From positions 1 to 64,000 of the IMG/VR virus record IMGVR_UViG_3300023175_000012: 64,000 bases of DNA; one strand, 5' to 3'. The translations under genes were made by a program, and so were the position numbers. The notes beneath the pieces are model-generated. The model ran no database searches, was not told where the DNA came from, and was given only the letters and a program-made list of their open reading frames with translations. Below, piece by piece: positions 8,213-62,519 of this stretch. The stretch's first letter is position 1; the number at the start of each line of letters is the position of its first letter. Source of the DNA: a virus. Taxonomy: Duplodnaviria > Caudoviricetes.

Positions 8213-8241
8213 AGTATATAGAATAATTACGCTTTTGTCAA
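8213..8241 (-). promoter_or_regulatory. Sigma70-type (early/middle) promoter for the dNMP kinase
   Basis: TTGACA (8241-8236), 17 bp, TATACT (8218-8213). Confidence 0.75.
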
Positions 8242-8448
8242 GTATTTTTTACTTTTTTGAGCTTGTCGTTTTGCCCAGGCTGCTTCAAAACCAATCTCAT
8301 GCTGATATGCTTCGATGTTACCCCATAATCTTTTTACATAAGATTCATAAGTAGACATTATATCTTTTTCCTGCCATGATTCAGGGATGAGTTGACCTTT
8401 TACAATCCAATACAAACGATTTGCTTCTTTAAGTTGGAAGTATGTCAT
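8227..8448 (-). CDS. Hypothetical protein (73 aa), apparently leaderless
   Basis: ORF starts 4 nt after GTAAATA (8453-8459). Confidence 0.65.
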   Translation of the reverse strand: MTYFQLKEANRLYWIVKGQLIPESWQEKDIMSTYESYVKRLWGNIEAYQHEIGFEAAWAKRQAQKSKKYLTKA

Positions 8449-8485
8449 ACTGTATTTACAGTAGACTTATATTATAGCGTTAACA

Positions 8486-9250
8486 TTAGCCAATTAAGAA
8501 ACTGTAGCCAACGCCGCCAGCAACTTGTAGAGATAACTCTTGTTCTAGTTTCTCCATATCTGCTTGAGCTTCAGCTTTTAGTGTGTCACCGTTAAGACTT
8601 GTGCCGCCTTGTGGTCCAGCAACAGTAGCAAATTTACTACGAGCTTCTCCTAGCATGTATTTGCAACCTGCTAGTGTGTAATCTTTAATCCATTGCTTTG
8701 CTAGATAATCTTCAAATAATTGATTATCAGGTCTATAGTTGTAAGCATAGATTAAAACTTCTTCGTCAGCTCTAGGTTGTTGTAATACTGTAAGTTTCTT
8801 TGTAGTTGTGTTCCATTTAAATTCTATAAATGACCCAAACATACGCCCTACTAGTTCTTGATATCCTGCAAACATATCATAAGTTGCTAATCCTCCCATT
8901 TGAGTTGATCCACTTAAAAGATATGTGTTAGTAAATGCTAAGTTAAAAGGTTCAAATAGAGAGCCGCCTCCGCCGTTGCCTGTTCTAGATCCAATACTTC
9001 TACGGAATAGTTTTCTTACTTCGATAACTTCGCTAGGTAATATGTACTCATTTTGATCTTCAATTAGTGTCAAAAACAAGTAAGATTCTTCTACAGCGTG
9101 ATCTGTTCTCTGCCTATACTTTGTTAATGCTTTTGTTAGAGCAGATTCGTAGTGTATAGGATCTAATTCTACATCAACCATGCCGCCACCTAAAAAGGCG
9201 TTAACATAGTCAAATATTTCCTGTTTTTGTGTTGCTAAACTAGTTGCCAT
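8486..9250 (-). CDS. Neck protein (gp13-like head-tail adaptor)
   Basis: LGGGMVDVELD, WIKDYTLA..K..LGEARSKF..V.GPQGG.SLNG motifs. Confidence 0.85.
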   Translation of the reverse strand: MATSLATQKQEIFDYVNAFLGGGMVDVELDPIHYESALTKALTKYRQRTDHAVEESYLFLTLIEDQNEYILPSEVIEVRKLFRRSIGSRTGNGGGGSLFEPFNLAFTNTYLLSGSTQMGGLATYDMFAGYQELVGRMFGSFIEFKWNTTTKKLTVLQQPRADEEVLIYAYNYRPDNQLFEDYLAKQWIKDYTLAGCKYMLGEARSKFATVAGPQGGTSLNGDTLKAEAQADMEKLEQELSLQVAGGVGYSFLIG

Positions 9251-9270
9251 ATTATCTTGTTCTCCAATAG

Positions 9271-9291
9271 TATTTATCGTATCGATAAATA
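9271..9291. promoter_or_regulatory. Palindromic bidirectional late promoter between gp13 and gp14
   Basis: TATTTATCG-TAT-CGATAAATA: perfect 9-bp inverted repeat giving GATAAATA on both strands. Confidence 0.75.
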
Positions 9292-9296
9292 TGTAT

Positions 9297-10520
9297 ATGC
9301 CAAGACTATCATTATATAAACCAGAAAAGGGAAATGACTACAAATTTATGGATCAAAGGATCTATGAAATGTTTACAGTCGGCGGTACTGATGTTAATAT
9401 ACACAAGTATGTCGGAACAGACGACGGTGAAGTAGTCAAAGATAATACCCAAATACAAGATTTACTGTTCTTAGAAAACAGAGACAGAAAGTATGATCCA
9501 GATATCTATACTATACGGGGTATATACAACGTTCAAGACATTGATTTCGATCTAAGCCAATTTGGTTTATTCTTATCTAATGATACATTGTTTATGACCA
9601 TACATATTACTTCTAGTGTAAAAACGCTAGGAAGGAAGATTATGAGCGGTGATGTTATAGAACTCCCGCATTTAAAAGATGAGTATGCTGAAAACGATTT
9701 TGCAACTAGTCTTAAAAGATATTATGTTGTTGAAGATGTAAACAGAGCGGCAGAAGGATTTTCACCTACTTGGTATCCTCACTTATATAGAGTTAAATTA
9801 AAACAGATTGTTGATTCACAAGAGTTTAACGATATTTTAGAAGTACCGGAAGATGAAGATATCTTTATGGGTGATTACAGTTCAACTGTTACTTATGAGA
9901 TAGGACAAGTTGTAAAATATAAAGGAAAACTTTATCAAGCAACAGCTCAAACATCAGGAAATACACCTACAGATGTTTTTAACTGGTCTGAATATACAGA
10001 AAACACTTTGAGAGATTTACTAAGCACTTATGATAAAGAAAAGGCAATTAATGATGCTGTTTTAAGCGAAGCAGAAGCTGACGCAGAAAAATCAGGATAT
10101 GATACTAGCCATTATTATACTATTACTACAGACGATACTGGTAGAACAAGTGTAACTACTTTAGACGACCCAGGCGCAGGTAAACCTAGTAGAAGTGGGT
10201 ATGCAGGTTATCTAGTAGAAGACGGTCAACCACCTAATGGAGCAGCATTCGGAAGTGGAACAAGTTTTCCTGCTATAAACGAAACAGGTGATTACTTTTT
10301 ACGTACAGATTTTTTACCTAATAGATTGTTTAAATTTGATGGTACTAGGTGGTTAAAGGTACAGGATAATATTAGAATGACAATGACTAATACTAACGAT
10401 AGAAAAACTCAAATCGGAACATTTATTAATAATACCAATACAAATGAAATTGGTGGAGAAACAATTACAGAAAGACAAGCACTTTCTAAAGCACTTAGAC
10501 CAAAACCGGATAATACGTAA
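9297..10520 (+). CDS. Neck protein (gp14-like) with an inserted CBM5/12-like module
   Basis: FDLSQFGLFL and GDVIELPHL motifs; start placed at MPRL (9297), 5 nt after the promoter; insertion GDYSSTVTYEIGQVVKYKGKLYQA. Confidence 0.8.
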   Translation: MPRLSLYKPEKGNDYKFMDQRIYEMFTVGGTDVNIHKYVGTDDGEVVKDNTQIQDLLFLENRDRKYDPDIYTIRGIYNVQDIDFDLSQFGLFLSNDTLFMTIHITSSVKTLGRKIMSGDVIELPHLKDEYAENDFATSLKRYYVVEDVNRAAEGFSPTWYPHLYRVKLKQIVDSQEFNDILEVPEDEDIFMGDYSSTVTYEIGQVVKYKGKLYQATAQTSGNTPTDVFNWSEYTENTLRDLLSTYDKEKAINDAVLSEAEADAEKSGYDTSHYYTITTDDTGRTSVTTLDDPGAGKPSRSGYAGYLVEDGQPPNGAAFGSGTSFPAINETGDYFLRTDFLPNRLFKFDGTRWLKVQDNIRMTMTNTNDRKTQIGTFINNTNTNEIGGETITERQALSKALRPKPDNT

Positions 10521-12046
10521 TGCAATTTTTTTATGATGCACAGATAAGAAGGTATGTAACTCAACTAGTAAGAATGTTGAGTAATTTCAATGTGCAAGAT
10601 GCACACGGAAATGAAAAGCAAGTTCCAGTTATGTACGGAGATATGACTAGACAAGTTGCTAATATAATACGAGACAACAGCGAAAACAAGATTCCAACAG
10701 CACCAAGAATGTCTGTTTACATTACTGGTCTTGAAATGGACAGAGATCGCACAGCCGATTCTAGTTTAATAAGTAAGCGTCACATACGTGAACGCACTTT
10801 TGACGAAGCAACTGGACAATATCTTAGTACACAAGGTAAAAACTACACTGTAGAACGACATATGCCTGCTCCATATACATTAAAAGTAAGTGCTGATCTT
10901 TGGGCTACAAACACAGAACAAAAATTACAAATATTAGAGCAAATATTAGTTTTGTTTAATCCTAGTTTTGAAATACAAACTACAGATAACTATCTAGATT
11001 GGACTAGTTTAACTGTAGTAAACATAGAAGGTATAACTTTTTCATCACGTTCTATACCTATAGGAGTTGATAGTGAAATTGATGTTGCTAGTATACAATT
11101 TAGTACCCCAATATACTTAACACCGCCTGCAAAGGTAAAACGCTTAGGAGTAACTACAAGTATTATATCTAACATATTCAATGAACAAACAGGGGATATT
11201 AACTTAGGTGCTACAATAGCAGGACAAATTGATGGTACTGAACCTGTATTTGTTACAAGAGTTAATACAGGTCCAATAGACACCGAAGATGACGGAAGCA
11301 CATACAATGTTGATGACGGTGCATTTCCAAATCAAGGTGACGGAAATATGGACTTTAATACAAAGAGATTGTTTGATAAAACAAGTATTAGTAGTACCTA
11401 TCAAAATTATGGTTTAAGTGTAGTTGATGATGTAGCACAATTAGTGTGGCGTAATAAGATAGGCGAAGTAAATTGGAGAGAACTAGTTGAAGCCTACCCT
11501 GGCACATATAAAGCAGATGTAAGCAGAATACTACTTATGGTAGATAGTAATGGAAATTATATTACAGGAACATTTACTATTAATCCTATGGACGAAACAA
11601 AAATTGTAATTAATTTCGACAGCGATTCATTACCAGATGATACTATTATTGAAGGTCCTGCTAGAAATCCAAATAGTTATACAAGTGTAGATTACATTAT
11701 TGATCCTTTAAGATTTAATCCTACTGATGTAAAGGGAGCAGGTATTAGGTTACTCATACTTGGAGATATAGGAAATTCAGAAAATGTAGATGGACCAGAT
11801 GCTTGGAAAAATACTGACGGTTCAGATTTTACAGCAAATGAAAACGATATTGTTGAATGGGACGGCTCTAAATGGCATGTAGTGTTTGATGCTTCTGGTG
11901 CAAACGATGGAAGCACTGATTCACCTGCAACATACATAAGCAATCTAAATACCGGCACACAATATAAATGGAACGGCGAGTTTTGGATTAAGAGCTATGA
12001 AGGTGAATACTCAGGAGGGACCTGGAACATACTACTAGATGCATAA
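10520..12046 (+). CDS. Tail sheath stabiliser/tail terminator (gp15-like) with C-terminal extension
   Basis: FFYDAQIRRY, VPVMYG, PRMS, PAPYTL, QILEQILVLFNPS motifs. Confidence 0.88.
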   Translation: MQFFYDAQIRRYVTQLVRMLSNFNVQDAHGNEKQVPVMYGDMTRQVANIIRDNSENKIPTAPRMSVYITGLEMDRDRTADSSLISKRHIRERTFDEATGQYLSTQGKNYTVERHMPAPYTLKVSADLWATNTEQKLQILEQILVLFNPSFEIQTTDNYLDWTSLTVVNIEGITFSSRSIPIGVDSEIDVASIQFSTPIYLTPPAKVKRLGVTTSIISNIFNEQTGDINLGATIAGQIDGTEPVFVTRVNTGPIDTEDDGSTYNVDDGAFPNQGDGNMDFNTKRLFDKTSISSTYQNYGLSVVDDVAQLVWRNKIGEVNWRELVEAYPGTYKADVSRILLMVDSNGNYITGTFTINPMDETKIVINFDSDSLPDDTIIEGPARNPNSYTSVDYIIDPLRFNPTDVKGAGIRLLILGDIGNSENVDGPDAWKNTDGSDFTANENDIVEWDGSKWHVVFDASGANDGSTDSPATYISNLNTGTQYKWNGEFWIKSYEGEYSGGTWNILLDA

Positions 12047-12054
12047 CTACTAGT

Positions 12055-12495
12055 ATGAGCGATATTGTTTGTAGTGGAGCATTATTCTACTCCCTAAATA
12101 CAAAAAGATTTTTATTCCTACATAGGACTGGTCCTAAGTCTAATATCTCTTGGGGATTAGTTGGCGGAACAAATGAAAATAAAGAGACTCCTTGGGAAGG
12201 ATTAAAAAGAGAAATTTACGAAGAAATTGGTAATGTAGATTTCAAGAAAGTAATTCCTTTAGAAAGTTTTGTAAGTAACGATAATAGGTTTTCATTTCAT
12301 ACCTATCTAATAGTTATAAATGAAGAATTCATCCCCCAATTAAATAAAGAGCATGATGGATATGCTTGGGTATCAATTGGACAATGGCCTAAGCCACTAC
12401 ACCACGGGTTAAGAAATACACTACAGAACAAAACAATACAAGGAAAATTATCAACAATAACAGAAGTACTAAAGGTAATGGAAGACAATGAGTAG
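12055..12495 (+). CDS. NUDIX hydrolase
   Basis: Nudix box GGTNENKETPWEGLKREIYEEIG. Confidence 0.9.
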   Translation: MSDIVCSGALFYSLNTKRFLFLHRTGPKSNISWGLVGGTNENKETPWEGLKREIYEEIGNVDFKKVIPLESFVSNDNRFSFHTYLIVINEEFIPQLNKEHDGYAWVSIGQWPKPLHHGLRNTLQNKTIQGKLSTITEVLKVMEDNE

Positions 12496-12847
12496 TGACG
12501 TATCAAAACAATCATGGGGACATGAACTTACAATAGCAAGAACAAATGATTATTGTACAAAAATATTAGCATTTGAAAAAGTAGGAAGTATTACAGACTT
12601 TTTCTTTAACGTAAAAAAAGAAAAAACTTGGTTTGTAAATACAGGCAATTTTAAATTGCGTTGGATTGATACTGATACAGGAAAACTTTTTGAAACAGTT
12701 ATAGGCGAAGGGCAAATTCATCATGTTCCTCCCCTAATGCCGTGTTGTCTTGAATCTATAAAAGACGATTCGTCGATTACAGAATCAAGCAATGGTGAGT
12801 TTGAAAAAGATAAGTTTATAGTGCTTCCTGGTAAAAACGTAGGGTGA
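12488..12847 (+). CDS. Cupin-fold protein (sugar isomerase-like; first metal-binding motif degenerate)
   Basis: KQSWGHE...YCTKIL...KKEKTWFV..G.F...HHVPP pattern; the usual HxH appears as FFFN. Confidence 0.65.
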   Translation: MSSDVSKQSWGHELTIARTNDYCTKILAFEKVGSITDFFFNVKKEKTWFVNTGNFKLRWIDTDTGKLFETVIGEGQIHHVPPLMPCCLESIKDDSSITESSNGEFEKDKFIVLPGKNVG

Positions 12848-12850
12848 AAC

Positions 12851-13117
12851 ATGTTTCCACGATTAACAAAGTCAGAAAAATGGACTAATGATTTAAAGCG
12901 TTATAAGAATGCTACACTTATAATAGAAGATGAAAAAGTTAAACTCAAACTAGTCAATTATATAAAAACGTTTGAGGAACTATCTAATGAAATAGATGTA
13001 GGACATCAATCAAGTAGCGGAGGCATTATTAGTCCGCGTCAATTAATAGACACAAAACACAATTTGTTCAAAGTTAAAGAAAAAATTGAAGTAATGTTAA
13101 AACAATTAGATAACTGA
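12851..13117 (+). CDS. Hypothetical protein (88 aa)
   Basis: ORF with GGGTG RBS ending the plus-strand operon; overlaps the convergent gene by 12 nt. Confidence 0.65.
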   Translation: MFPRLTKSEKWTNDLKRYKNATLIIEDEKVKLKLVNYIKTFEELSNEIDVGHQSSSGGIISPRQLIDTKHNLFKVKEKIEVMLKQLDN

Positions 13118-15058
13118 TATACGTTTAATTGTTATAGCACCTACCATTGCAGGGTGCAATGTACACTGATATCTATAGTTTCCTGAAATAGTTTCAGGAA
13201 CTTCCCAATACAATGTTCCGCCATCTTTACCTTGAGCGTTTGCTCCAGTCGACACATTGCCAATAATATCTACATGAATTAATCCTGTATTATATGCTGT
13301 TCCTGTACCGTCTTGAATTTCAAAAGGATGTCCTGCAATTTGATCTAAGTCAAAAGCAATAGTCATACCACCTATTGCATATAGTGTAGGATTGTTTCCT
13401 GTATAACCGTGACTGTCGCACAGATACGCAGAGTTGCCTGCATTGTTTAGGCGTAACATAGCAAATGCTGGCATATAACTTTTATCTATAGTTCTACCAG
13501 TTCGCACAACTTCTTCTAGATCGTCATATTTACTAACACCTAATGCCGCTGGCATATCGATACGCACACTGTCGCCTGTAACTGTTGTGCTTATGTTAGT
13601 ACCACCAGTAAATGTGAATGTATCTGTTGTTGTGTTAGCAGAAACACTACCTGCATCACCGTTAAATGTTAACCATAAATTTTGATCTGGATCACCACCA
13701 CCACCACTTACTGTGTCAGGTCCCCATGTACTTCCGTCCCAAACAAGTGCTTGTCCTGTTGACGGTGCAGCACTACTGACATTGTTTAAATCTCCTATGT
13801 TAGAACTTGTCGATAAAGCATCCGTTATGCCGTATCCAGCTATTGTTGTAGGAGTTCCGGATAATGAACTAAATGCTCCATCAAAAGCGTCTGTGATCCC
13901 ATATCCTGCTATAGTAGTTGGCTTGCCAGACAATGAACTAAATGCTCCATCAAAGGCGTCTGTGATTCCATATCCTGCTATTGTAGTTGGAGTATTTGTT
14001 AATGAACTAAACTGTTTATCAAATAATAAACTAGTTGTATCAGTTAAGTCGCTTACATCGGAAGGAATAGTAGGAGTATTAATAAAGTTGTTATAATTTA
14101 AAAAGTATACACCTTCAAATCCGTCAAGTGTATCTGCGTTTGCACCTACACTAACATCTACTGTAAAGTTTGAATTGTAAACCATAAACACTGGAACATT
14201 AGCACCAACAGAACCAGGTGTTAATTCTGTTCCTGTTGTATCGTCATAGAAATTAGCTCTAAATCCGTTTACAGTTTTGTTTGCAATCTCAACAGATATA
14301 TTTGCATCGCCTGCAATTTCTAAATCAGTGACAACTACATAATTAGTATTACTTTGTGCTGTATCAAATGTAAAGTCTATGTAACTGTCTGTGTTTGCAT
14401 TGTATACGTGTGCCGCACTTTGCATTTCAACAAACTGTGTTGGTGTAGTTAAGTTTCCTGCATCTATTCTAGCAAACGCAAATGGTGCAACTACTGATGT
14501 AACATCATTGCCACCGCCACCTGCGGTTAAGTCTGCACCAGGTGACCACTTAGCACCATCCCATTTTAAAACATTACCTGCAGACGGAAGATTGCTACTT
14601 GTATCGACATCTGTTAAATCGTCAATGCCTAAATTAGCTGCGCCAGCACCTGTAATAGTAAGTGTATTACCGCTAATAGCCGTACTTACTGTGCCTGCTC
14701 CTGCAACTGTTAAACTGTCAGTAGGACTAGATGCTGTTATAGTTCCTGCATCTGCATTAAATGTTTGGAATAGATTTTGATCCGGGGTTGCTACTGATCC
14801 TGTAAAATTAATTGTAACTTGGTCTCCTGATATTGCTGTTGTAATATCAGTACCGCCAACTATAGCAAAAGAATCATCTTCTGCATCTGCTGTAGTTGTA
14901 CCGCTGTCTGCTGTGAAGGTCTTAAAGACATCAGGTGCTTCTGCTGATATACCTGCGCCTGCAACTACATTCCAAGATGTACCATCCCATTGCCAAGTTG
15001 TTGTGCCATCTGTAAATGTATCGTCTATACTAGGACTGTTAGGAAAATTTAATGCCAT
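13106..15058 (-). CDS. Tail fibre/virion appendage protein with a C-terminal cupredoxin-like domain
   Basis: ALNFPNSP...WQWDGTSW N-terminus; PTTIAGYGITDA fibre repeats; C-terminal GHPF...YQCTLHPAMVG. Confidence 0.75.
   Translation of the reverse strand: MALNFPNSPSIDDTFTDGTTTWQWDGTSWNVVAGAGISAEAPDVFKTFTADSGTTTADAEDDSFAIVGGTDITTAISGDQVTINFTGSVATPDQNLFQTFNADAGTITASSPTDSLTVAGAGTVSTAISGNTLTITGAGAANLGIDDLTDVDTSSNLPSAGNVLKWDGAKWSPGADLTAGGGGNDVTSVVAPFAFARIDAGNLTTPTQFVEMQSAAHVYNANTDSYIDFTFDTAQSNTNYVVVTDLEIAGDANISVEIANKTVNGFRANFYDDTTGTELTPGSVGANVPVFMVYNSNFTVDVSVGANADTLDGFEGVYFLNYNNFINTPTIPSDVSDLTDTTSLLFDKQFSSLTNTPTTIAGYGITDAFDGAFSSLSGKPTTIAGYGITDAFDGAFSSLSGTPTTIAGYGITDALSTSSNIGDLNNVSSAAPSTGQALVWDGSTWGPDTVSGGGGDPDQNLWLTFNGDAGSVSANTTTDTFTFTGGTNISTTVTGDSVRIDMPAALGVSKYDDLEEVVRTGRTIDKSYMPAFAMLRLNNAGNSAYLCDSHGYTGNNPTLYAIGGMTIAFDLDQIAGHPFEIQDGTGTAYNTGLIHVDIIGNVSTGANAQGKDGGTLYWEVPETISGNYRYQCTLHPAMVGAITIKRISVI
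13817..14011. repeat. About three tandem 69-bp coding repeats (FSSLxxxPTTIAGYGITDAFDGA)
   Basis: Visible in both DNA and protein; a known tail-fibre motif. Confidence 0.9.
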
Positions 15059-16626
15059 TAGTTACCTCCACTAATATTTATCGTTCCTGATATAGCCCAC
15101 GGATTTGCTTGACCATGTCTACTATACAGCATTCTATTAGGACCGCCTAATAGTGTTAACGTATAATTATCGTAATCTGTATCAGAACCTGTTGTTGAAA
15201 TAACACTCTTACAATCTGCAAAAACTTTATCTTGTAATTGTGCAGGAGTAAGATCAGGCTGTACTTGTAAATGTAATGCACAAACACCAGCAACTTGCGG
15301 TGATGCCATAGATGTGCCTCCTATACTCATAATTTTGTATATGCTGTTAGCTGGATAATCTAAAAGTGTATATCCAGAATCTGCAATTCTACTTGATGTA
15401 CTCATTATGTTATCACCCGGTGCATAAATGTTTATTGCAGGGCCTCTTGTAGAACTATCTGCAATTTTGTCTACAGTACCGTCTACCTCTGCATCAATAT
15501 TTCCGACCATAAATGCTTCACTACTAAAAGGTGAACTACCTTGATGATATTCATATGCAAACCCACCAAAAGTTACAGTGTTATCAAAGTCTGCGCCACC
15601 GGGCACATCGGCTTTATAACGATTGTTTCCAGCCGCAATACATATGTGTATTCCGGCATCAATCATATCTTCAATTTCTGCATCAACTGAGGCTACTCTA
15701 ACTGGTAATCGCATTTGACCGAAAAATTCTCTACTTACACCTGTTGCCGCCCACAGTTCGCCTCTAGTTGTATAGTCAACTCCGTATGTCCAAGGAGTTC
15801 CTCTATATACACCGTTTGTAGGATCAGAAGATTGTGTTGATCCATACCCCCAACTCATATTTACAACAGTTGGACTACCGTTTGTTTTTGCACTATGCCA
15901 TAAACGTATAGCATCAAATGCTTGAGAGATCGGAATGCCTGTGCCATCACTTCCTGATAATGTTTCTAGCCCTTGTAACTTTTGGCTGAATATTCTAGCT
16001 CCCTTAGCCCAACCATATGTTTTGCCTGCTGCTATGCCTGCACAATGAGTGCCGTGTCCGTCGGCATCTCTATAATGGTCTGCTGATTGCGTACCTATTA
16101 GTCCAGATTCTGTATACCAGTCAATTTGCTGTAATCTACTGTTGCCAGATGCATCTTGCCATTCTGGATGTTCAGGATCAATACCGCTATCTTGAATAAC
16201 AATATCTACACCAGTGCCATCTAGTGCATAAAGATAGTCGCCTGCTATTGTAGTATTAGTTCCATATACGTTAGTTTCTTCTATACAACGTCTTAACCCC
16301 CAATTTACAAACGTTGGTGTTGTTAATGCAGCACCCGAAATACTTCTATAAAATACTCCTGTTTGTGTTGCATTACGAATTAGCTCTATATCGTCTCTTT
16401 GATCTGGTGGAATTTCTACCGATAACACTCTTGGATCTTGTCTTAGATCTTGTGCTTCTTCGTCAGTTAGCATCCAATGTGTCATACGCTTGGAACCTAC
16501 TCTAGGATCAGCAATGTCTACACTTCTGCTAGGAATAGGACCTTCTCCTGTACTTGCAGATAGTTCTGCATCAAATGCTTCTAAGTCTATTCCTCTATGT
16601 ACTACTACAATATATTCTTTTTCCAT
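15058..16626 (-). CDS. Subtilisin-family (S8) serine protease with N-terminal propeptide
   Basis: Catalytic triad motifs VIQDSG, HGTHCAG and GTSMASP; oxyanion AAGN. Confidence 0.93.
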   Translation of the reverse strand: MEKEYIVVVHRGIDLEAFDAELSASTGEGPIPSRSVDIADPRVGSKRMTHWMLTDEEAQDLRQDPRVLSVEIPPDQRDDIELIRNATQTGVFYRSISGAALTTPTFVNWGLRRCIEETNVYGTNTTIAGDYLYALDGTGVDIVIQDSGIDPEHPEWQDASGNSRLQQIDWYTESGLIGTQSADHYRDADGHGTHCAGIAAGKTYGWAKGARIFSQKLQGLETLSGSDGTGIPISQAFDAIRLWHSAKTNGSPTVVNMSWGYGSTQSSDPTNGVYRGTPWTYGVDYTTRGELWAATGVSREFFGQMRLPVRVASVDAEIEDMIDAGIHICIAAGNNRYKADVPGGADFDNTVTFGGFAYEYHQGSSPFSSEAFMVGNIDAEVDGTVDKIADSSTRGPAINIYAPGDNIMSTSSRIADSGYTLLDYPANSIYKIMSIGGTSMASPQVAGVCALHLQVQPDLTPAQLQDKVFADCKSVISTTGSDTDYDNYTLTLLGGPNRMLYSRHGQANPWAISGTINISGGN

Positions 16627-16628
16627 TG

Positions 16629-17909
16629 TTATGCCTTAAATATGTAAACAGCCCCACTACCTTGGTTTTCAGCTGGAACACCTACTACCATGTAATCGTT
16701 GTTTGCTCTAATTGTATATCCAAATCTATCGTTTGTACTTGTATCGTATTTATTTGGATTTACTACAGTATTTTGATAACTCCAATCTGTTGTACTAAAA
16801 ATATGTATCACACCACTTGCTGTACCATTGTCGTCATCTTCTTCTAGTGCTCCTACAGCAAGATAATTGTCAGTTAATGCTATTGATTCACCAAATCTAT
16901 CATCTGTATTTGTATTATAGGTATTTGGATTGTTAATAGTTTGTATTAGACTACCATTAGTAGGATTGTAAATATATACACGACCGCTATTTGTGCCGTC
17001 ACTGTCTTCTCCTGGACAGCCTACCGCTGCATAACTTTCATTTAAATCAACAGCATATCCAAATCTATCGTCTAAGTCTAATGCATCCTCTTTTGGATTG
17101 TATATAGATTGGTCAGTAGCACCCGTGCTATTGTTAAATAGGAAAAATGCACCACTGTCTCCTTGGCCCAATGCACCAGGTTCGTTTTCTCGCCAGTTAC
17201 CTACCATTGTCCATGTATCAGTAATTGCGAGTGTATTAATTAATTGACCTATTTGATCTCCAGGATATTCATCTTCTGCATCTAAATTAGGATTCTCAAT
17301 AGAATGATCTAAGTTATAATTATTATTTAAATCAAAAATGTAAATCCAACCAGTGTCATCTCCAATGCCTACAGCATTTTCTCTGTATGCACTTATAGAA
17401 GCATAGTTTTCTGTTAGAGCTACGTTTTGACCAAATGCATCACCATTGGGGTTAACTTCTGTTGTATTAGGATTGGGGTCATCGAATGTATGAACTAAAT
17501 TGCCATTTGTTACATCAAACAAATATGCTTTACCGTTGTTATCTGTTGTATCGTTTTCATTAGGTGCGCCTACAAGTACATAGCCCGTATTTAAGGCAAC
17601 ACTAGTTCCAAAACTGTCGCCGTCGCCTGCATTTATTGGTGCTACAGGATTAGGATCGTCTATAGTTCTTAAATAGTTTCCAGTGCTTGAATACAAATAA
17701 ACTTTACCTTGGGAGGGGACTCCGTTTGCATCCTGTTCCCCTGGTGCGCCTACGGCAATAAAATTACCATGTATTGCAACAGATGTTCCAAAAGCATCTG
17801 ATTGTGCAATTCCTTCCGGATTTGGATTTTCTAAATATCTTAATAATTTGAAGGGTGTTACTTTAGGTTGAAAATATTGTAAAGAACTTACTGAGCTATA
17901 TCTTGGCAT
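16629..17909 (-). CDS. FG-GAP repeat beta-propeller protein (probable virion adhesin)
   Basis: About seven D.FG.SVA....VGAP.E...G.VY repeats; start more likely MPRYSS (17909), just after the upstream stop, than 17951. Confidence 0.85.
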   Translation of the reverse strand: MPRYSSVSSLQYFQPKVTPFKLLRYLENPNPEGIAQSDAFGTSVAIHGNFIAVGAPGEQDANGVPSQGKVYLYSSTGNYLRTIDDPNPVAPINAGDGDSFGTSVALNTGYVLVGAPNENDTTDNNGKAYLFDVTNGNLVHTFDDPNPNTTEVNPNGDAFGQNVALTENYASISAYRENAVGIGDDTGWIYIFDLNNNYNLDHSIENPNLDAEDEYPGDQIGQLINTLAITDTWTMVGNWRENEPGALGQGDSGAFFLFNNSTGATDQSIYNPKEDALDLDDRFGYAVDLNESYAAVGCPGEDSDGTNSGRVYIYNPTNGSLIQTINNPNTYNTNTDDRFGESIALTDNYLAVGALEEDDDNGTASGVIHIFSTTDWSYQNTVVNPNKYDTSTNDRFGYTIRANNDYMVVGVPAENQGSGAVYIFKA

Positions 17910-17914
17910 AGTTT

Positions 17915-19411
17915 TTATCCATAATTTACATAACTGCCTAAAACGTTCCAAGAACCTCCTGAGCGTATCATGGATAAAGTTATTACATCTGTTTTGTTTG
18001 CATTTCCTGTTGGAGCAACATTATCTATCCATTTCACTGTTTGAGTTACACCGTCAATCTGCACTACGTTAGGCACATATGGTGTTGTACCTTGTGTAAT
18101 TATAAATGCTATATTTGTTGCTCTGTTTTCTGTTGCAGGTACATTTGTAATATTTGCTGTCCAATTAGCTGCTGGAGATAAAATATTAAAAATAGGACCG
18201 CCTGAATAGTTATGGTTAACTGTACCCGTAACTCCAGTTTCGTTTGTAATTACTTCATTAGTTTTAAGTACATTTTCTAGTCTTATACCGTCTGGAGCAA
18301 TAAAATCTATAGTACTTGCACTTGTAAATGTAGGATTACCAATTCCTGTATTTTGTATATTTGCTGCATTTATACTGTCAACAGTTAATACACCGGTTGC
18401 TGTTATATCATCAAATGTTACATCATCTGTAGTATTAAGATTTTGATCGTATGTAGAGCCACCACCGCCGCCGGAGCTGTTTATTGTAATAGTATTTGTT
18501 GTATTATCTACGTCTAGTGTAACATTTGCTCCAGGAGCAAAATTTAAAGTATCGCTATTTCCTGACGCAATAATACTATCAGGATCACCACTTACTGTCA
18601 CATTTTTAAATGTGTTAACAGAAGGTAAAGGTGTAGTAGGCTGAACCCATTGACTACTGTCATCATCTGTTATGTAAATGTAAATTTTACCAGTTGAACT
18701 ATCAAACCATATATTACCTGCTTCTGGAGATGTAGGTGGTGTATCACTAACATCAACACTAGCACCACCGCTTGCACCACCTGTTCCTGGTTCTGCAACA
18801 GTAATAGAATTTCCCATGCCGGTATGATTTTTACACCAGTAATAAAGTGTAGTAGGCGTATCGTTTGTAACTGTAATCTGTACTTGACGTGTTATAGCTT
18901 CGTTGAATTTATCGTAGTATACAGCTCGTGTTACAGGATCATCATTTATATAATATCTAACATTGTCTTCATATGCTGTTCCGCCTACATCTAATTCGCC
19001 GTTTAGTGTTGTTGAAAATGCAAGTTGATGTTCGTTTAGGGTACCGCCTGTTGGATTTGGATAATAGACATTAGTAGGATCTGTTTGATCAAATACATAT
19101 GTATAACCTATAACAAATGTTAGTTCAGGTTTGTATTCACCATTAAGGATATACTTATTACCTTCACCTTGGTTTTCAACGACAACATTATACTGTACAG
19201 TTGCAACCTTAGCATTAGAAATATTTCGTTGTAAATTATCTTCAGTAACAACAGTATAGCCGCCAGCTAATTTTCCGCTGTATACACGTAAGGTATTTGC
19301 TTGTTTATCAAAGAATACTTCACCGCTAGAACCGACATTACGATCTAAGAAATCGTCAGGTCTTGGTATAATGCGTATTCTATCTACTACTGGTGCTGAA
19401 TTTGATGCCAT
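17915..19411 (-). CDS. Virion structural/fibre protein with a cupredoxin-like domain
   Basis: NEHQLAFS...YYWCKNHTGMG; PPTSPEAGNIWFDS fibre module; late promoter at 19434-19440. Confidence 0.7.
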   Translation of the reverse strand: MASNSAPVVDRIRIIPRPDDFLDRNVGSSGEVFFDKQANTLRVYSGKLAGGYTVVTEDNLQRNISNAKVATVQYNVVVENQGEGNKYILNGEYKPELTFVIGYTYVFDQTDPTNVYYPNPTGGTLNEHQLAFSTTLNGELDVGGTAYEDNVRYYINDDPVTRAVYYDKFNEAITRQVQITVTNDTPTTLYYWCKNHTGMGNSITVAEPGTGGASGGASVDVSDTPPTSPEAGNIWFDSSTGKIYIYITDDDSSQWVQPTTPLPSVNTFKNVTVSGDPDSIIASGNSDTLNFAPGANVTLDVDNTTNTITINSSGGGGGSTYDQNLNTTDDVTFDDITATGVLTVDSINAANIQNTGIGNPTFTSASTIDFIAPDGIRLENVLKTNEVITNETGVTGTVNHNYSGGPIFNILSPAANWTANITNVPATENRATNIAFIITQGTTPYVPNVVQIDGVTQTVKWIDNVAPTGNANKTDVITLSMIRSGGSWNVLGSYVNYG

Positions 19412-19447
19412 ATTAAAATCCTATCTACAGTAGTATTTATCTGTAGT

Positions 19448-39038: not shown

Positions 39039-39088
39039 TTTTTAATGCTCCGTTATTGTATTTATACATTTTTTACTGTCCTATAAAA

Positions 39089-51640: not shown

Positions 51641-51656
51641 TAGTATTTATCGTTTT

Positions 51657-57774: not shown

Positions 57775-58145
57775 TATGTAATTTCCAAATAACTAACTGT
57801 GCAAGCAAGTCTTCCTGTTCCGCTTGCTGACGGTCCTCCGTTAATTTGAACAGAGTCGCCTGCGTCTAATACTATTTTTTCTGTATCTAATGTAAATGTT
57901 TCGCCTGCTGGTAATGACAAGCGTCTAACTACAGATGTAATAGTGTCACTGTATGATCCGTTTGATGGAACAAAATGTAAATCAAATTCACAAGTTTCGT
58001 TTTCTGGATTAGACGCACTTGGGTCATAAGTATTGCAAACTAAAATATTAGTAATAGCATATGACTTATTAGCAGGAACAGTTAACATAATGTGTCTATA
58101 ATCTCCGCCACCTTGATCAATTATTGCTGTATTAACTATTGCCAT
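57774..58145 (-). CDS. Small beta-rich virion protein (paralogue family)
   Basis: AITNILVCN...EKIVLDAGDSVQI. Confidence 0.65.
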   Translation of the reverse strand: MAIVNTAIIDQGGGDYRHIMLTVPANKSYAITNILVCNTYDPSASNPENETCEFDLHFVPSNGSYSDTITSVVRRLSLPAGETFTLDTEKIVLDAGDSVQINGGPSASGTGRLACTVSYLEIT

Positions 58146-58154
58146 ATTATTTCC

Positions 58155-59168
58155 TTAAAAGAGCATACTATAAACTAGTGCTCTATTTCTACTTATAATT
58201 TCATCTCGTTGGTTTTGTGCATTTACGAAATACATACCTGTGCCTGCTGATTGAGATGGTTTAGCATACAACAGTATTCCGTCATCTGGTTCTACTGGAT
58301 CGGTTATTCCGTCAACACCTTCGTGTGGAGTATAACCTAATCTTAAGTTGTCGTCAACTACAACATGTCCGGTACCAGTTGCACTTAATATTAAATCTTC
58401 TTGACTTGTACCAAGTGTTTTAATTTCAGTACCATGAACAGTTTGTTCAATACGTATTCCATGTGTATCAGTCCAAGTTGCTCTAACATCTTGAACTAAG
58501 TTACCGTCAACAACAGTTTCTGCTCTACTAGGACCCGAAACACTGTCATCATACACATGTACCTTAGTATCGCCTACTTGAACTCTGTTAGGTACAACAG
58601 TACCAAAGAAGTTAAAGATAGCATCATCTACATATTTTTTGTTAGGTATATGGTCGTCATCAGTAACTCGTTGCTCATAGTTTGCTGTTCCTGTAACAGT
58701 AACAACTCCGGGGTTTGCTGTACTTACACCTGATAATGTATATCTACCAAGTAAGTTTAAATCTACGCCCGGTGTTGTAATACTTACAGTTTCAATGCCT
58801 CCGATTCTACCTCCTGGGTATCTCGATGACCAAGCACCTTTATCAACTGTGCCTCCGTTAGCTGTATCTGTCCAAGTTACATTTTCTACAAATAAGAATT
58901 GAGCGTCTTGTATTGTACCCCTATCAACACGAATACCGGAAGCGCCATCTCTAGTAATGCCGTTTCCGGTTTCGCCTTTGTTAAGTTCAATGATATTGTC
59001 TTCAACAACAGTGTTGACTGTATCAAGAGTAGTAGTAGTGCCTTCAACAACTAGGTTGCCGGTGATGTAAACATCTCCAACTTCCGTACCTGTATCAAGT
59101 GTAATTCTACCACCTTCTTTAACAACTACTCTGTAGTTGCCGTCAGCTACTCTTAAATACTTGTCCAT
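58155..59168 (-). CDS. Virion structural/fibre-base protein (337 aa)
   Basis: ITGNLVVEGTTT...VEDNIIELNKGE...GIRVDRG and PNKKYVD motifs of phage fibre proteins. Confidence 0.65.
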   Translation of the reverse strand: MDKYLRVADGNYRVVVKEGGRITLDTGTEVGDVYITGNLVVEGTTTTLDTVNTVVEDNIIELNKGETGNGITRDGASGIRVDRGTIQDAQFLFVENVTWTDTANGGTVDKGAWSSRYPGGRIGGIETVSITTPGVDLNLLGRYTLSGVSTANPGVVTVTGTANYEQRVTDDDHIPNKKYVDDAIFNFFGTVVPNRVQVGDTKVHVYDDSVSGPSRAETVVDGNLVQDVRATWTDTHGIRIEQTVHGTEIKTLGTSQEDLILSATGTGHVVVDDNLRLGYTPHEGVDGITDPVEPDDGILLYAKPSQSAGTGMYFVNAQNQRDEIISRNRALVYSMLF

Positions 59169-59180
59169 AAGTTATTATCC

Positions 59181-59636
59181 TTATGCGTCTTCAGTGAAGT
59201 CGTCGTCGTCAGTACCAAGTAGTACGTCATCATCACCAGCTTCTTCAACTTGTACAGCACCGTCAACAGCACTTACTGTGAAGTTCCATGGAATCGATTG
59301 TCCGTTTAATGCATTCGAACCTGTTGCACTGTGAGCAATGATAGTTGCCTTACGTCCTGAAATTTTACTAACGCCGTAAGTTTCACCGTCATCACCTTTA
59401 ACACTGATGCACATTTCTTCGCCTGTTAAAGCAGCAGGTAATTTTCCTGTAGTTAAAAAACGATCGTATGTAGTTCCTGGTGTGCCAATTGCGGCAACAC
59501 GAAACTTTTTAGATCCTAATTGTTTTACAATGTAGCCTTCTAGAACAGCTGATGTGCCATCATAGAAATCTACTTTGATTTCATTGCCACCTGCTGTAGC
59601 AGGTCCAAAGTATCTTTTATTAAGTGGTCTTCCCAT
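59181..59636 (-). CDS. Hypothetical late protein (151 aa; possible head/neck decoration)
   Basis: Strong AGGAG RBS, own late promoter (59732-59738), acidic C-terminal tail. Confidence 0.7.
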   Translation of the reverse strand: MGRPLNKRYFGPATAGGNEIKVDFYDGTSAVLEGYIVKQLGSKKFRVAAIGTPGTTYDRFLTTGKLPAALTGEEMCISVKGDDGETYGVSKISGRKATIIAHSATGSNALNGQSIPWNFTVSAVDGAVQVEEAGDDDVLLGTDDDDFTEDA

Positions 59637-59728
59637 TTGTTTTCTCCTATAAAGTAGTCCTATCCGGGTTCTATCCGGTACGCTGTGGGTAACAGCATAA
59701 GTCCGCCTTGCGGCACACTATCTGACAC
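59637..59728 (-). ncRNA. Candidate structured 5' leader (multi-hairpin junction) of the 151-aa gene
   Basis: Hairpins GCC-GCAA-GGC, TATGCTGT-TACCC-ACAGCGTA and CCGG-ATAGAAC-CCGG, closed by TAGT/ACTA just before the RBS. Confidence 0.5.
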
Positions 59729-59749
59729 AAGTATTTATCAAATAAGAAG

Positions 59750-59773
59750 AAAGCCCGCACAGTGGCGGGCTTT
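59750..59773. terminator. Terminator closing the ncRNA transcript
   Basis: AAAGCCCGC-ACAGTG-GCGGGCTTT; on the minus strand it is followed by a CTTCTTATTT tract. Confidence 0.8.
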
Positions 59774-59777
59774 AAGA

Positions 59778-59994
59778 ATAAGCAAAATAGGTAGGACTCG
59801 GTTACACCTACAAGCCACGGACCAAATACCATTTCATCTCCGCGACAACCTGCTTCCGCTCGGTAGAGCGATGTGACATTGCCTGTTTCCAGTACAACAC
59901 CTGGGTACCACCCCTAAACAGTCAAGTTCGACGCTCTGGTAAACGCCTCTTCCTTGCACTATAAACATTGACTAGCTAAGTCTTTGTTGCTTAT
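59778..59994 (-). ncRNA. Large structured ncRNA (~217 nt), manA-RNA-motif-like
   Basis: 5' ATAAGCAA pairs with 3' TTGCTTAT; at least six internal hairpins including CTG-GAAA-CAG and CGCTC-TACC-GAGCG; bounded by a promoter and a terminator. The manA assignment is from recalled resemblance only. Confidence 0.7.
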
Positions 59995-60000
59995 GTTATT

Positions 60001-60028
60001 AATATAACATCTTTAAAATAAAAGTCAA
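60001..60028 (-). promoter_or_regulatory. Sigma70-type promoter of the ncRNA
   Basis: TTGACT (60028-60023), 16 bp, TATATT (60006-60001) with extended TG; predicted start coincides with the 5' arm of the terminal helix. Confidence 0.7.
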
Positions 60029-60110
60029 CCACTTTTTATGAAAAATTAATGATTTTCTGCAAGATTTTTGTCAAAAAGTGTGTTTAAATAATAATTGAAA
60101 GGAGATTGTT

Positions 60111-60182
60111 ATGTGGACAAAACCTAGCTATACAGAAATGCGTTTTGGCTTTGAAGTTACAATGTATGTAATGAACAAGTAA
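60111..60182 (+). CDS. pqqA: Pyrroloquinoline quinone precursor peptide PqqA (MWTKPSYTEMRFGFEVTMYVMNK)
   Basis: 23-aa ORF absent from the ORF track; AAGGAG RBS ending 6 nt before the ATG; hallmark W.KP...R.GFEVTMY with the invariant Glu-x3-Tyr; TTAAATA late-type promoter at 60084-60090. Confidence 0.93.
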   Translation: MWTKPSYTEMRFGFEVTMYVMNK

Positions 60183-60192
60183 AACCGTAGTC

Positions 60193-60222
60193 AAAAAAAT
60201 AGGGCCCTAAGGCCCTATTTTC
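60193..60222. terminator. Bidirectional terminator shared by the major capsid gene and pqqA
   Basis: AAAAAAATAGGGCC-CTAA-GGCCCTATTTT. Confidence 0.85.
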
Positions 60223-60238
60223 TCGTTTTAAGTAAAAC

Positions 60239-61417
60239 TTAGCTAAAGCTCACGCTTCCGTTAGTAATCGCAACTTTACCTAAGTAATCTGCTGCGTTAC
60301 CAAGTGATGAAGCTGTGTTTGATAGCTCAACGTAACCATATCTGGTCATAAATGACACAGTTGGCTCGAATGTTGCTGGATCAAGCACAACACCACTTGA
60401 CATTAGTGGAATGTATGGGCAATAGAACGCTGGTGCGTCTGATTCACTTGAACCCTTATAACCAACAAGTACTGGTGCATCGTCTGCACTGTATGTGTTG
60501 ACGTACACTTTCATTGCGTTATTCAATGTACCAACCATTTTAGTGTTAGTTGGTGCTTCGAATGTACCTTCAGTTGTTCTTGCGAACGCAGAAGTTGTAG
60601 CACTTTGTAGAATTGTTAACGCAAATGGGCTAACAACAGCGTAGTTACCTGCGCCTCTACGTGTACGCTGTGCAATCAAGTTTGCAACTCTGTTGATTTG
60701 AACAGCTAATGCAGCATGCTCGTCACCAACGAATGTTGCTGTACCTGATACAGCACTTTGGTCATATGTTTCAGCAGCATTACCAGCTAGGCTGTTTAGG
60801 CTTGCTAAAACTTCTTGGTCAATCTCAGCGGTAATTTCTTGTGCTAATGCAGCCATAATTTCTGCTTCAACATCAATACCGTGCATTGATTGTGCATCCT
60901 GTGCAGCTTCAAAAGTCCAACGAGCTGATAGCTTTCTGGATTTAGCTTCTACAGTTTGCTTTAAGATTTGGATGGACAATTTACGTCCAGCTTGACCTTC
61001 TAAAGCTGCTGTTGTAGCGGCTTTATCGTCAGCTGCACCGGAATATCCTTCCGCAATCTTGAATGGGCTAAGTGCCTCTTCACCTGCTACAGTATCAGTT
61101 CCGCTTGTGCTATCAAAAGCTTCAGCGTAACGAACACGTAGAGTGTGGATTTGGCCAACTGGGCCAGTCATTGGTTGAACACCAACTAGCTCGTTAGCAA
61201 TAACAGTTGGCATAACACGTCTGATAACTGGTAGGATTACACGGTTTAGTGTAGCTACGTTACCAGCGGATGTTGCTCCAGCTGTTGCACTCTCAGACAA
61301 ATACTTACGAGTGTTTTCTAGTGTGGCAGCCATTACCGCCTTCTTGTTACCGTCCAGGCCTTCAAGAAGAGCGTCTTTGGTTTCTGTCCAGCGACTTTCT
61401 AATAGTTCTGACATCAT
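60239..61417 (-). CDS. Major capsid protein (T4 gp23-like)
   Basis: VIRRVMPTVIANELVGVQPMTGPVGQI, AKSRKLSARWTFEAAQD, EITAEIDQE, FYCPYIPL, MTRYG. Confidence 0.97.
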   Translation of the reverse strand: MMSELLESRWTETKDALLEGLDGNKKAVMAATLENTRKYLSESATAGATSAGNVATLNRVILPVIRRVMPTVIANELVGVQPMTGPVGQIHTLRVRYAEAFDSTSGTDTVAGEEALSPFKIAEGYSGAADDKAATTAALEGQAGRKLSIQILKQTVEAKSRKLSARWTFEAAQDAQSMHGIDVEAEIMAALAQEITAEIDQEVLASLNSLAGNAAETYDQSAVSGTATFVGDEHAALAVQINRVANLIAQRTRRGAGNYAVVSPFALTILQSATTSAFARTTEGTFEAPTNTKMVGTLNNAMKVYVNTYSADDAPVLVGYKGSSESDAPAFYCPYIPLMSSGVVLDPATFEPTVSFMTRYGYVELSNTASSLGNAADYLGKVAITNGSVSFS

Positions 61418-61424
61418 TTTCTCC

Positions 61425-62519
61425 TTATTTAATTCCAGCTAGACGGCGTATATCAAGTACTTTTGACTCGTCTGCTTTGATATGTGTCGTGTTTTCTTTT
61501 CTGTTGCCTGTAACTTCTGTTGCCTCTGATAATATAGCCTTACGCTTTGCTGGAGCCTGGCCATCGATAACTGATGGTAAGTACTTGTCAAATGATTTTT
61601 GAAGTCTATCTGTTTGTACTGATTCCAGTAAGTCTGTCATAATCTCTTGCTGATCTCTGCTCAATGGAGCAATTAGACCACGCATGATCTTTTCGCGGTT
61701 TGCTGATTCTACAAGTTTATTGTTTTCTGCCTTTTGAGCTTCTGCAATATTCTTTGCTTTTTCAGCAAATGCTTTTGCTTCTGCAAGTTGCTTGTCTTTC
61801 AACTCAACAACTTTTAGTAACTTAGCACTTTCGCTTTTTTCATTTAGGTAGCTATTTGAATACTCATTGCTGAATGCTTCAAATATTTTGCGCCCAAAAT
61901 CATTTCTTCGTGCTTCTTCAATATCTTCTTTAAGTTGAGTAATTTCTCCTTTAAGGACTTTATCAACTGTTTCTGATACCGCTGTAGCACTTCTTTCAAT
62001 AAAGTTAGATTTAACCTTCTTGAAGTGTTCTTTAGCTTCACGTACTAAACGTACTTTCGTTTCTGCTAAATCTTTTTTATCTTCATAGAACTCTGCAATT
62101 TCTTTAGAAAGAGCTTCAACTACAAATTCTTCCAACTGAGCGGCTTTAATAGCCATTGCTTTTTTGTCTTCGTGTAGTTCGCTTACTTCTTTTTGTAGCT
62201 GCTCTAAAACAAAATTCTTCATTAGGTCTGCGTTTTCGCGCATTGCTATTGCATATTTTGCTTTTGCTTCAGCTAGTTGTTTACGATCATCTGCAAACTC
62301 TGAAATTTCTTCAATTAGCTTTTCAGACAACATTGCATCGATTGCTTCAACCATAGTTGATTTATCATGCTCGTATTTTTTAGCGAATTCTTCACGAAGT
62401 TCAGCTGTAACTTGTTGACGATTCTCGTTGATCTTCGCTTCCCAAGCTTCTTGTATTTCTGCTTTTACTTCTTCAGAAAGTGCTGTGCTCTCGAAGAGTG
62501 ATTTTAATGCTTCCAACAT
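61425..62519 (-). CDS. Prohead core scaffolding protein (gp22-like)
   Basis: Long acidic coiled coil between the protease and capsid genes; GRKIFEAF motif. Confidence 0.88.
   Translation of the reverse strand: MLEALKSLFESTALSEEVKAEIQEAWEAKINENRQQVTAELREEFAKKYEHDKSTMVEAIDAMLSEKLIEEISEFADDRKQLAEAKAKYAIAMRENADLMKNFVLEQLQKEVSELHEDKKAMAIKAAQLEEFVVEALSKEIAEFYEDKKDLAETKVRLVREAKEHFKKVKSNFIERSATAVSETVDKVLKGEITQLKEDIEEARRNDFGRKIFEAFSNEYSNSYLNEKSESAKLLKVVELKDKQLAEAKAFAEKAKNIAEAQKAENNKLVESANREKIMRGLIAPLSRDQQEIMTDLLESVQTDRLQKSFDKYLPSVIDGQAPAKRKAILSEATEVTGNRKENTTHIKADESKVLDIRRLAGIK

Follow-up and report, generated by a model that had tools for sequence, protein, structure and literature searches.

The gene described here specifies a structured RNA of the manA family (Rfam RF01745) and lies in a 64,000-nt stretch of viral DNA, hereafter the window, which covers positions 1 to 64,000 of the IMG/VR virus record IMGVR_UViG_3300023175_000012. 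The whole record has 115,784 bases and was rated 31% complete by CheckV. The RNA is transcribed from the minus strand in the gap that separates a T4-type major capsid gene from the structural genes after it. It is preceded by a sigma-70-type promoter, followed by an intrinsic terminator and closed by an extra terminal helix, P0, that joins its 5′ and 3′ ends (Table 1). Beyond the terminator, a late-promoter-like motif and a second structured RNA, freshwater-2, stand ahead of a 151-aa open reading frame (ORF), and on the capsid side the RNA gene is divergent from a small pqqA gene. The capsid protein was 67–69% identical to those of jumbo myoviruses with genomes of 349–469 kb, so the source is probably an uncultured jumbo phage with a T4-like core.

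Table 1. The manA-family RNA gene and its neighbours, in window positions
Feature	Position	Strand	Details
manA-family RNA locus	60028-59750	-	between T4-type major capsid gene and next structural genes
Sigma-70-type promoter	60028-60001	-	TTGACT-16-(TG)TATATT, 10/12 matches, TG before -10
Structured body	59994-59778	-	217 nt, closed by helix P0
Rfam manA (RF01745) match	59781-59981	-	whole model, 1-192/192; 47.4 bits, E 5.7e-11
Helix P0	59994-59987 with 59785-59778	-	8 bp, joins 5′ and 3′ ends; outside Rfam model
Pseudoknot	59963-59959 with 59790-59786	-	from Rfam manA alignment; 4 standard pairs in window
Loop UACCAG (L3)	59941-59936	-	third element by our count
Loop GUGGUA (L5)	59911-59906	-	complementary to UACCG of L7
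Hairpin P6/L6	59901-59875	-	capped by GAAA tetraloop at 59889-59886
Loop with UACCG (L7)	59866-59861	-	partner of L5
Loop containing UGGUA (L8)	59835-59828	-	complementary to L3 over 5 nt
Intrinsic terminator	59773-59750	-	9 pairs (6 G-C), 6-nt loop, T-rich tail
Late-promoter-like motif GATAAATA	59739-59732	-	T4-type, for downstream gene
Freshwater-2 RNA (RF02980)	59717-59634	-	76.6 bits (gathering 49.9), model 1-84
151-aa ORF	59636-59181	-	ribosome-binding site and ATG within freshwater-2 RNA
pqqA promoter-like site	60068-60095	+	
pqqA	60111-60182	+	23 aa; Pfam PqqA 46 bits (cut-off 21.1); divergent from RNA
pqqA terminator	60196-60221	+	also ends convergent capsid gene
Capsid gene	60239-61417		Pfam Gp23 329 bits; PHROG major head protein

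The match to the Rfam manA model extended over the full model, with all consensus helices present and in order. The E-value in Table 1 was obtained over 751 bases and became 2.1e-12 when the whole record was scanned, which held a single manA copy; one cultured jumbo relative, Vibrio phage 2.275.O (capsid 69% identical), gave no manA match in its 348,911 bases. Scanning the RNA stretch with Rfam up to an E-value of 10 revealed no other credible family. The gathering score of the manA model is 55.2 bits, and a default scan at that cut-off does not list the window RNA. The RNA was compared by blastn with 50,697 phage records. The RNA of the cultured Pelagibacter phage Mosig was 75.5% identical over 235 nt (window 59772–60006); it scored 64 bits against the manA model, above the threshold, and is unannotated in its record. 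A degenerate pattern built from the shared core placed the same subfamily in at least 118 viral contigs. When 15 sister loci were scanned, 14 gave whole-model manA matches of 40.4–62.4 bits and one gave none; five reached the gathering score and nine fell at 40–55 bits. The window RNA therefore appears to be part of a large manA subfamily that straddles the Rfam threshold, most of which (9 of the 14 sister matches) that threshold misses. The original prediction, made from the sequence of this locus, had proposed manA or a diverged relative of it, and the second wording is the accurate one because 47.4 bits is under the curated score. On the whole-model match and its relatives, the window RNA is almost certainly a diverged member of the manA family.

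The sequence and fold of the window RNA are homologous to manA, with all consensus helices and the pseudoknot kept and covarying. The internal helices that had been listed from the single sequence were all found on the minus strand and proved to be those of the Rfam manA alignment (GACT/AGTC, GGCGTT/AGCGTC, GGG/CCC, CTG-GAAA-CAG, CGCTC/GAGCG, GTCGCG/CGTGGC and GTAGG/CCTAC), and the pairing of the RNA ends gave the 217-nt span that had been put forward. Covariation among homologues, named earlier as a check, was measured in A1, a MAFFT alignment that held 69 distinct RNAs, where the scored structure comprised the Rfam helices, the pseudoknot, P0 and one loop–loop contact. Paired cells amounted to 84.2%, compared to 69.5% after shuffling, and the covariation score was 0.418 against 0.156 (reached in 0 of 500 shuffles), falling to 0.09–0.10 when the partners were slid by 1–3 columns. 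Double-sided changes occurred at 47 of 74 pairs. Pairing per helix was 75–100% across the homologues, bar one inner helix (19.8%) that MAFFT had misaligned and that was not relied on.

Within the same alignment, six of the eight P0 pairs changed on both sides (for example AU/UA in 43/23 sequences and GC/AU/CG in 63/3/3), as did nine of the 11 pairs in the P6/L6 hairpin, whose loops were GNRA-type in the subgroup of the window RNA and different in other subgroups. One pair of the pseudoknot was AU in 61 sequences, CG in five, GC in two and UA in one, and was never unpaired; three others were invariant. A model-based alignment of 41 sequences gave a covariation score of 0.53 versus 0.19 for the P4–P7 domain. 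The minimum free energy (MFE) of the single sequence, −80.5 kcal/mol, was unexceptional (z −1.57, not significant, with 16 of 200 shuffles folding equally well), and folding energy was dropped as evidence. Since the single sequence folds no better than chance, the structural support comes from homology and covariation.

Two descriptions of the stretch in the original prediction needed qualification. It had been called a GC-rich island, which is correct relative to the adjacent promoter region (0.48 in the RNA against 0.26–0.32) and only modestly so relative to the flanking genes (0.40–0.44). It had also been said to hold no plausible ORF. Mechanical ORFs of 44 and 53 aa do exist on the minus strand, but homologues carry frame-breaking loop indels of 1–3 nt together with compensatory stem changes; the stretch is therefore non-coding, and a small-protein reading was rejected.

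The promoter TTGACT-N16-TATATT was found where it had been predicted, and it ends 7 nt ahead of P0. The subfamily shares this arrangement: all 84 distinct contexts had such a promoter at 10–12 of 12 matches, compared to at most 8 of 12 in control windows from the same loci, and the distance from the end of the −10 element to P0 was 5–8 nt in 82 of the 84. With the promoter set at this distance, the transcript would begin at the first base of the fold. For the window RNA, this places the expected start at ~59994 and, with a predicted 3′ end at ~59745, the putative product at ~250 nt. The type of promoter suggests that the RNA is made early.

The terminator, which had been described as strong, is indeed present with a hairpin of −15.1 kcal/mol; its tail, CTTCTTATTT (7 T in 10), is weaker than the TTTTTTCT of close relatives. 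It starts 4 nt after P0, and the MFE structure as well as the ensemble contains both elements at once, with a mean stem probability of 0.85 for the terminator in the full transcript and simultaneously 0.70 for P0. A terminator followed the RNA in 24 of the 84 subfamily contexts, and in 12 of those 24 the motif KATAAATA came next. The hairpins of relatives had energies of −10 to −20 kcal/mol and were predicted alongside P0 with mean stem probabilities of 0.77–1.00 in 18 of 19 distinct transcripts; for the 19th (L112) the value was 0.00, where the script had picked a wrong stem register. The terminator stems were unrelated in sequence between clades and did not overlap the conserved fold. In seven relatives (L063, L116, L083, L112, L051, L053 and L022), the nearest downstream ORF was on the opposite strand, so the manA RNA cannot be a 5′ leader there.

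The surrounding gene order recurs in relatives. In L009, L010, L064 and L087, the capsid gene was followed by a variable island, then by the manA RNA and its terminator, and then by a gene whose product begins with MGRP(L/I)NKR; the same order with an extra ORF inserted was seen in L044 and L097. L031, L037 and L049 kept the capsid gene and the manA–terminator unit, with the MGRP gene uncalled (the ORF caller chose another frame in L031 and L037, and L049 ends early).

The canonical, cyanophage-type manA RNAs were examined in 95 distinct contexts. A promoter with at least 10 of 12 matches was found just upstream in 86; a terminator followed in 39, whereas 52 ran on towards an ORF, and a tRNA gene lay 5–19 nt after the RNA in six, two of which also had a terminator. 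Since 39 of the 95 canonical copies precede terminators and six precede tRNA genes, the stand-alone form appears to be common in the manA family; counting both sets, roughly one third to one half of contexts have a terminator or tRNA gene after the RNA. The tRNA genes (Asn and Gly; L131, L146, L157, L174, L205 and L210) start just after the 3′ end of manA, which there is part of an RNA-gene cluster. At other canonical loci (for example L138, L143, L170 and L176), the −35 element of the promoter, TTGACA, is found within the loop of a G+C-rich hairpin, with a run of T after the hairpin; this one element could thus serve as terminator of the preceding transcript and as start signal of the manA RNA.

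The gene downstream of the window RNA has its own signals. The T4 late promoter is TATAAATA, placed just ahead of genes. The related word KATAAATA occurred 14 times in the window, compared to 14.4 expected by chance, and 13 of the 14 sites lay at most 120 nt upstream of the start of an ORF on the same strand, a zone that takes in 4.3% of positions; 13 of the 14 were on the minus strand (for example 39059–39066, 51644–51651 and 19434–19441). KATAAATA thus looks like a variant of the T4 late promoter, GATAAATA at this locus, that is used across the structural module of the jumbo phage. The freshwater-2 RNA begins 15 nt after GATAAATA and belongs to this neighbouring late transcription unit and not to the manA RNA. 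By eye, a freshwater-2-like leader with a late-promoter-like motif followed the terminator in the window and in L010, L031, L037, L049, L064 and L087; the family was confirmed with Rfam for L049 and L097, and L037 reached 48.3 bits, just under the cut-off. In this phage clade, freshwater-2 appears to be the leader at the 5′ end of a late mRNA for structural genes. A literature search for 'freshwater-2' returned no relevant paper among the matches listed, and no Pfam or PHROG family was found for the 151-aa ORF. With a terminator and a separate late-promoter-like motif before the next ORF, the window RNA is not in a 5′ untranslated region (UTR) position. The earlier claim that it is an independent transcript and not a cis-leader was supported by its own promoter and terminator, by the separate motif and leader of the downstream gene and by the relatives.

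Loop–loop complementarities had been noted before as possible pseudoknots. Of these, TACCA/TGGTA is ambiguous, as each word is present twice in the window RNA. One combination, UACCA (59940–59936) with UGGUA (59831–59827), is perfect over 5 nt, and both motifs are nearly invariant in the family, which puts the L3/L8 pairing beyond covariation testing; AACC/GGTT likewise falls on invariant bases. With L3 and the GG of L8 invariant, there was a partial association only, namely GGAAU–AUUCC and, in two sequences, GGUAU–AUACC (L3/L8, L8/L9). The L5/L7 contact was more variable. Its partner sets across the 69 RNAs were GGUA/UACC (29+3 sequences), UGUC/GACA (7), UGCA/GGCA (3) and UAUA/GAUA (1), and the mean number of Watson–Crick pairs was 3.52 of 4, compared to 2.74 (standard deviation 0.09, maximum 3.01) in 1000 shuffles among sequences, a control that ignores relatedness. 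In the model-based alignment of 41 sequences, one L5/L7 pair was GC in 40 and AU in one with none unpaired, and another was UA in 20 and CG in three. The two loop types lay one column apart in this alignment (model R1, alignment A3), where the two registers paired at 61.3% and 59.8%, each fitting about half of the 41 rows. As no single column register fits both loop types, the register-free count was used.

A preprint of July 2026 (Ren et al., bioRxiv 10.64898/2026.07.01.735769) describes cryogenic electron microscopy (cryo-EM) of five manA RNAs, which assembled into octamers, decamers and an icosahedral-like cage of 60 subunits. Pentamers are the building block of all three and were held together by the intermolecular kissing loops L5–L7′ and L8–L9′, and in another member by L5–L7′, L3–L8′ and a contact between the L6 GNRA loop and a receptor. 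We numbered the Rfam elements in 5′-to-3′ order and counted the pseudoknot as element two, which made L5 the GGUGGU-type loop, L6 the GNRA loop, L7 the ACC loop, L3 UACCAG and L8 UGGUA. With its L5/L7 and L3/L8 complementarities of 5 nt and its GAAA loop, the window RNA has the sequence features of the reported assembly, and by this numbering it would share three interface kinds with the oligomers (L5/L7, L3/L8 and the GNRA loop of the sixth element). The constructs in the preprint differ from it in that they were other members of less than 200 nt, made with T7 polymerase, altered in their first nucleotides and refolded in vitro, whereas the window variant has P0 and a terminator tail. If the numbering holds, the L5/L7 covariation provides support from natural sequences for one of the reported intermolecular interfaces; the main text of the preprint contains neither 'covari' nor 'in vivo'. 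The complementarities that had been read as internal pseudoknots are thus present, but they are more likely to be kissing-loop interfaces between copies of the RNA.

Metatranscriptome data were available from 24 runs that hold parts of window positions 58000–62000, 23 of them labelled salt marsh metagenome and one (X18) aquatic metagenome. In four salt-marsh runs examined in detail, exact contigs over the 151-aa ORF had depths of 8–15. Short manA-like contigs with 5–10 differences had depths of 329–1212; these come from relatives and may sum many strains. The depths are a weak hint: they fit an abundant RNA body with some read-through, and fit summed relatives and DNA carry-over equally.

Taken together, the anatomy of the locus and the comparison with relatives suggest that the host sigma-70 polymerase would start at ~59994, the first base of P0, and that transcription would end at the terminator (59773–59750), releasing a free RNA of ~250 nt with a structured body of 217 nt. 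The downstream gene would be outside manA control, read from its own late-promoter-like motif with its own freshwater-2 leader. On the preprint and the covariation, the free RNA may act in trans as a self-assembling particle, in which the L5/L7 and L3/L8 complementarities and the GAAA loop would be the modules that join RNAs into pentamers and then into decamers or a 60-mer cage. Candidate roles for such an assembly are the sequestering of a host factor or metabolite, or a scaffold. That a discrete transcript is made from the window manA gene we consider quite likely, and the whole chain, a free, early, self-assembling manA-family RNA, is reasonably probable.

Several observations weigh against this explanation. 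The window RNA scores below the gathering threshold of the family. Downstream, 44 of the 84 subfamily contexts have TATAAATA within 7–37 nt after the RNA and then a leader, and another 12 have a ribosome-binding site and ATG directly after it (four contexts show neither these nor a terminator); in these 44 and 12 contexts, an early transcript would carry the manA RNA as a 5′ leader. Weinberg et al. (2010, Genome Biol 11:R31) listed manA as cis-regulatory, as a riboswitch candidate and as commonly located in 5′ UTRs. In the metatranscriptomes, one exact contig (59693–59816, run X3, depth 13.5) crosses the terminator, which may point to a degree of read-through or to DNA carried over into the library. 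The four runs examined consist of contigs, from which transcript ends and levels are not readable and where uncovered stretches and contig ends are no evidence. The assembly in the preprint (10.64898/2026.07.01.735769) was seen in vitro, with other family members, at ~3 mg/mL RNA and 10 mM Mg. The mapping of its loop numbers onto the helices of the window RNA is ours, and it fits the preprint text exactly; sequence alone cannot separate an intramolecular from an intermolecular L5–L7 contact.

The main rival is a riboswitch or attenuator in which manA is a ligand aptamer and the terminator at 59773–59750 the expression platform, with read-through in the presence or absence of ligand giving early expression of the 151-aa ORF and the structural genes. 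The rating by Weinberg et al. (cis-regulatory 'Y', switch 'y'), the downstream gene on the same strand as the RNA, the contig that spans the terminator and the 12 contexts with the RNA directly before a ribosome-binding site all speak for it. Such a switch should link the terminator to the fold, yet the two do not overlap, and the terminator is predicted to form while P0 is in place. Between relatives, the terminator stems have unrelated sequences while the 3′ part of the RNA is conserved, which makes a conserved anti-terminator pairing unlikely, and a comparison of the RNA 3′ strand with the terminator, by eye and by ensemble folding, gave only trivial U-rich/A-rich alternatives of 3–5 bp. 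Moreover, the gene after the terminator is convergent in seven relatives, canonical copies are followed by tRNA genes, the downstream gene in the window has its own motif and leader, and our literature search found no reported manA ligand. We consider a riboswitch or attenuator unlikely for the window RNA.

A free RNA of another kind would have the identical gene architecture and would work as a monomer, for example as a ribozyme or as a decoy or sponge that binds a host protein or defence system, with the loop pairs formed within one molecule. Such an internal contact is geometrically conceivable, as L5 and L7 are on one multi-helix junction, and oligomers have been seen only in vitro. However, in the cryo-EM structures of five members the contacts were intermolecular (10.64898/2026.07.01.735769), no catalytic or protein-binding motif was recognised in the RNA, and the Rfam scan up to E 10 gave no other credible family; this alternative seems improbable. 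That the RNA is the eroding or functionless relic of a manA leader, left behind between two late genes, is hardly credible. The score under the gathering threshold and the unexceptional single-sequence fold could be taken as erosion, but the helices are all intact and covarying, and independent contigs (L010, L031, L037 and others) hold nearly identical copies that share its promoter and terminator. The low score is explained by traits of the whole subfamily, namely an altered sequence of the pseudoknot, an internal loop of reduced length and the added P0, and these traits are also seen in members that score up to 64 bits.

Compared to the manA motif as it was known (RF01745), the window RNA shares the helices and their order, the place of the pseudoknot and the conserved loops (GGUGGU-type, ACC-containing and GNRA hairpin), and the motif likewise occurs with a promoter immediately upstream, in marine T4-like phages. 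The two differ in the pseudoknot, which is UAUAG/CUAU in the window RNA and GGGAG/CUCCC in the manA consensus line, and in the added 8-bp P0, whereas canonical cyanophage-type RNAs start at the first hairpin. The motif is typically found in cyanophages and in 5′ UTRs; the window RNA has its own terminator, is outside a 5′ UTR and probably comes from a jumbo phage. The closest copy in a cultured phage, Mosig EXVC030M (MT647606, 108164–108371), belongs to the same subfamily including P0 and has the same promoter type, but has no terminator and directly adjoins the ribosome-binding site of the next gene, which encodes rubrerythrin. Small stable RNAs beside the tRNA genes of T4 are also promoter-driven and structured. 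Their likeness to manA is an analogy of RNA-gene context only, through the six of 95 canonical copies with a tRNA gene 5–19 nt behind them.

The manA family itself was thus already known; the stand-alone, end-closed gene architecture, the evidence for its wide spread and the compensatory change in a reported assembly interface are new. manA has been an orphan 'riboswitch candidate' since 2010, and the text of the preprint is silent on its natural synthesis and use. The locus and its relatives supply this missing natural context with a dedicated promoter, terminators or tRNA genes, convergent neighbours and compensatory changes. The question of a free, self-assembling phage RNA is now directly testable in cultured systems, that is, in Pelagibacter phage Mosig and in T4-like cyanophages. 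A bolder proposal, which we put forward tentatively and regard as rather doubtful in its full form, is that manA RNAs are promoter-to-terminator genes and never leaders, and that their products form pentamer-based shells in the infected cell, with compensatory evolution preserving the intermolecular L5–L7 interface. The end-closed copies that stand alone in this jumbo-phage clade might then be the clearest natural 'RNA capsule', with a role in trans such as the early sequestering of a host factor or metabolite.

Among the subfamily contexts with the RNA directly before a ribosome-binding site, two genes were checked, both of an oxidative-stress type: a rubrerythrin in L001 (2561–2986, minus strand, 99.7 bits) and a peroxiredoxin of the Redoxin/AhpC-TSA type in L015 (2322–2852, minus strand, 95.3 bits). 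At L024 (722–788) and in 43 similar contexts, the manA RNA is followed by TATAAATA, a short hairpin, an A/U-rich leader with AAUACA-like repeats and gp32, and Pfam identified the gene after this leader as gp32 in the one locus checked. The arrangement between manA and gp32 is reminiscent of the leader of T4 gene 32, which is autoregulated.

The pqqA gene was present in a single copy, and no PqqD or PqqC family match was found in the 115,784-base record. Its DNA was 83–90% identical to stretches of phages of Methylophilales (OM43), where it is mostly unannotated, and a viral PqqA has been reported from Lake Baikal (PMC7678222). Contigs resembling pqqA had depths of 4,500–18,900 in three of the four metatranscriptomes and may be host-derived. 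The two-gene island that the original prediction had made of the RNA and pqqA was seen in the window and in L010, L031 and L037, whereas other relatives (20 other loci were compared) had different or no cargo. The pqqA island thus exists but is local, with the manA unit as the constant element. In the place of pqqA, L049 (766–814, minus strand, 54.2 bits) and L097 (2147–2193, minus strand, 47.8 bits) had a glutamine riboswitch (RF01739) with a score above the cut-off. It seems that small promoter-driven cargo has a hot spot in the gap that follows the capsid gene. Further along the minus strand, downstream of the structural genes, four very large ORFs of 1846, 1884, 2000 and 2337 aa lie in series (window 32025–57214).

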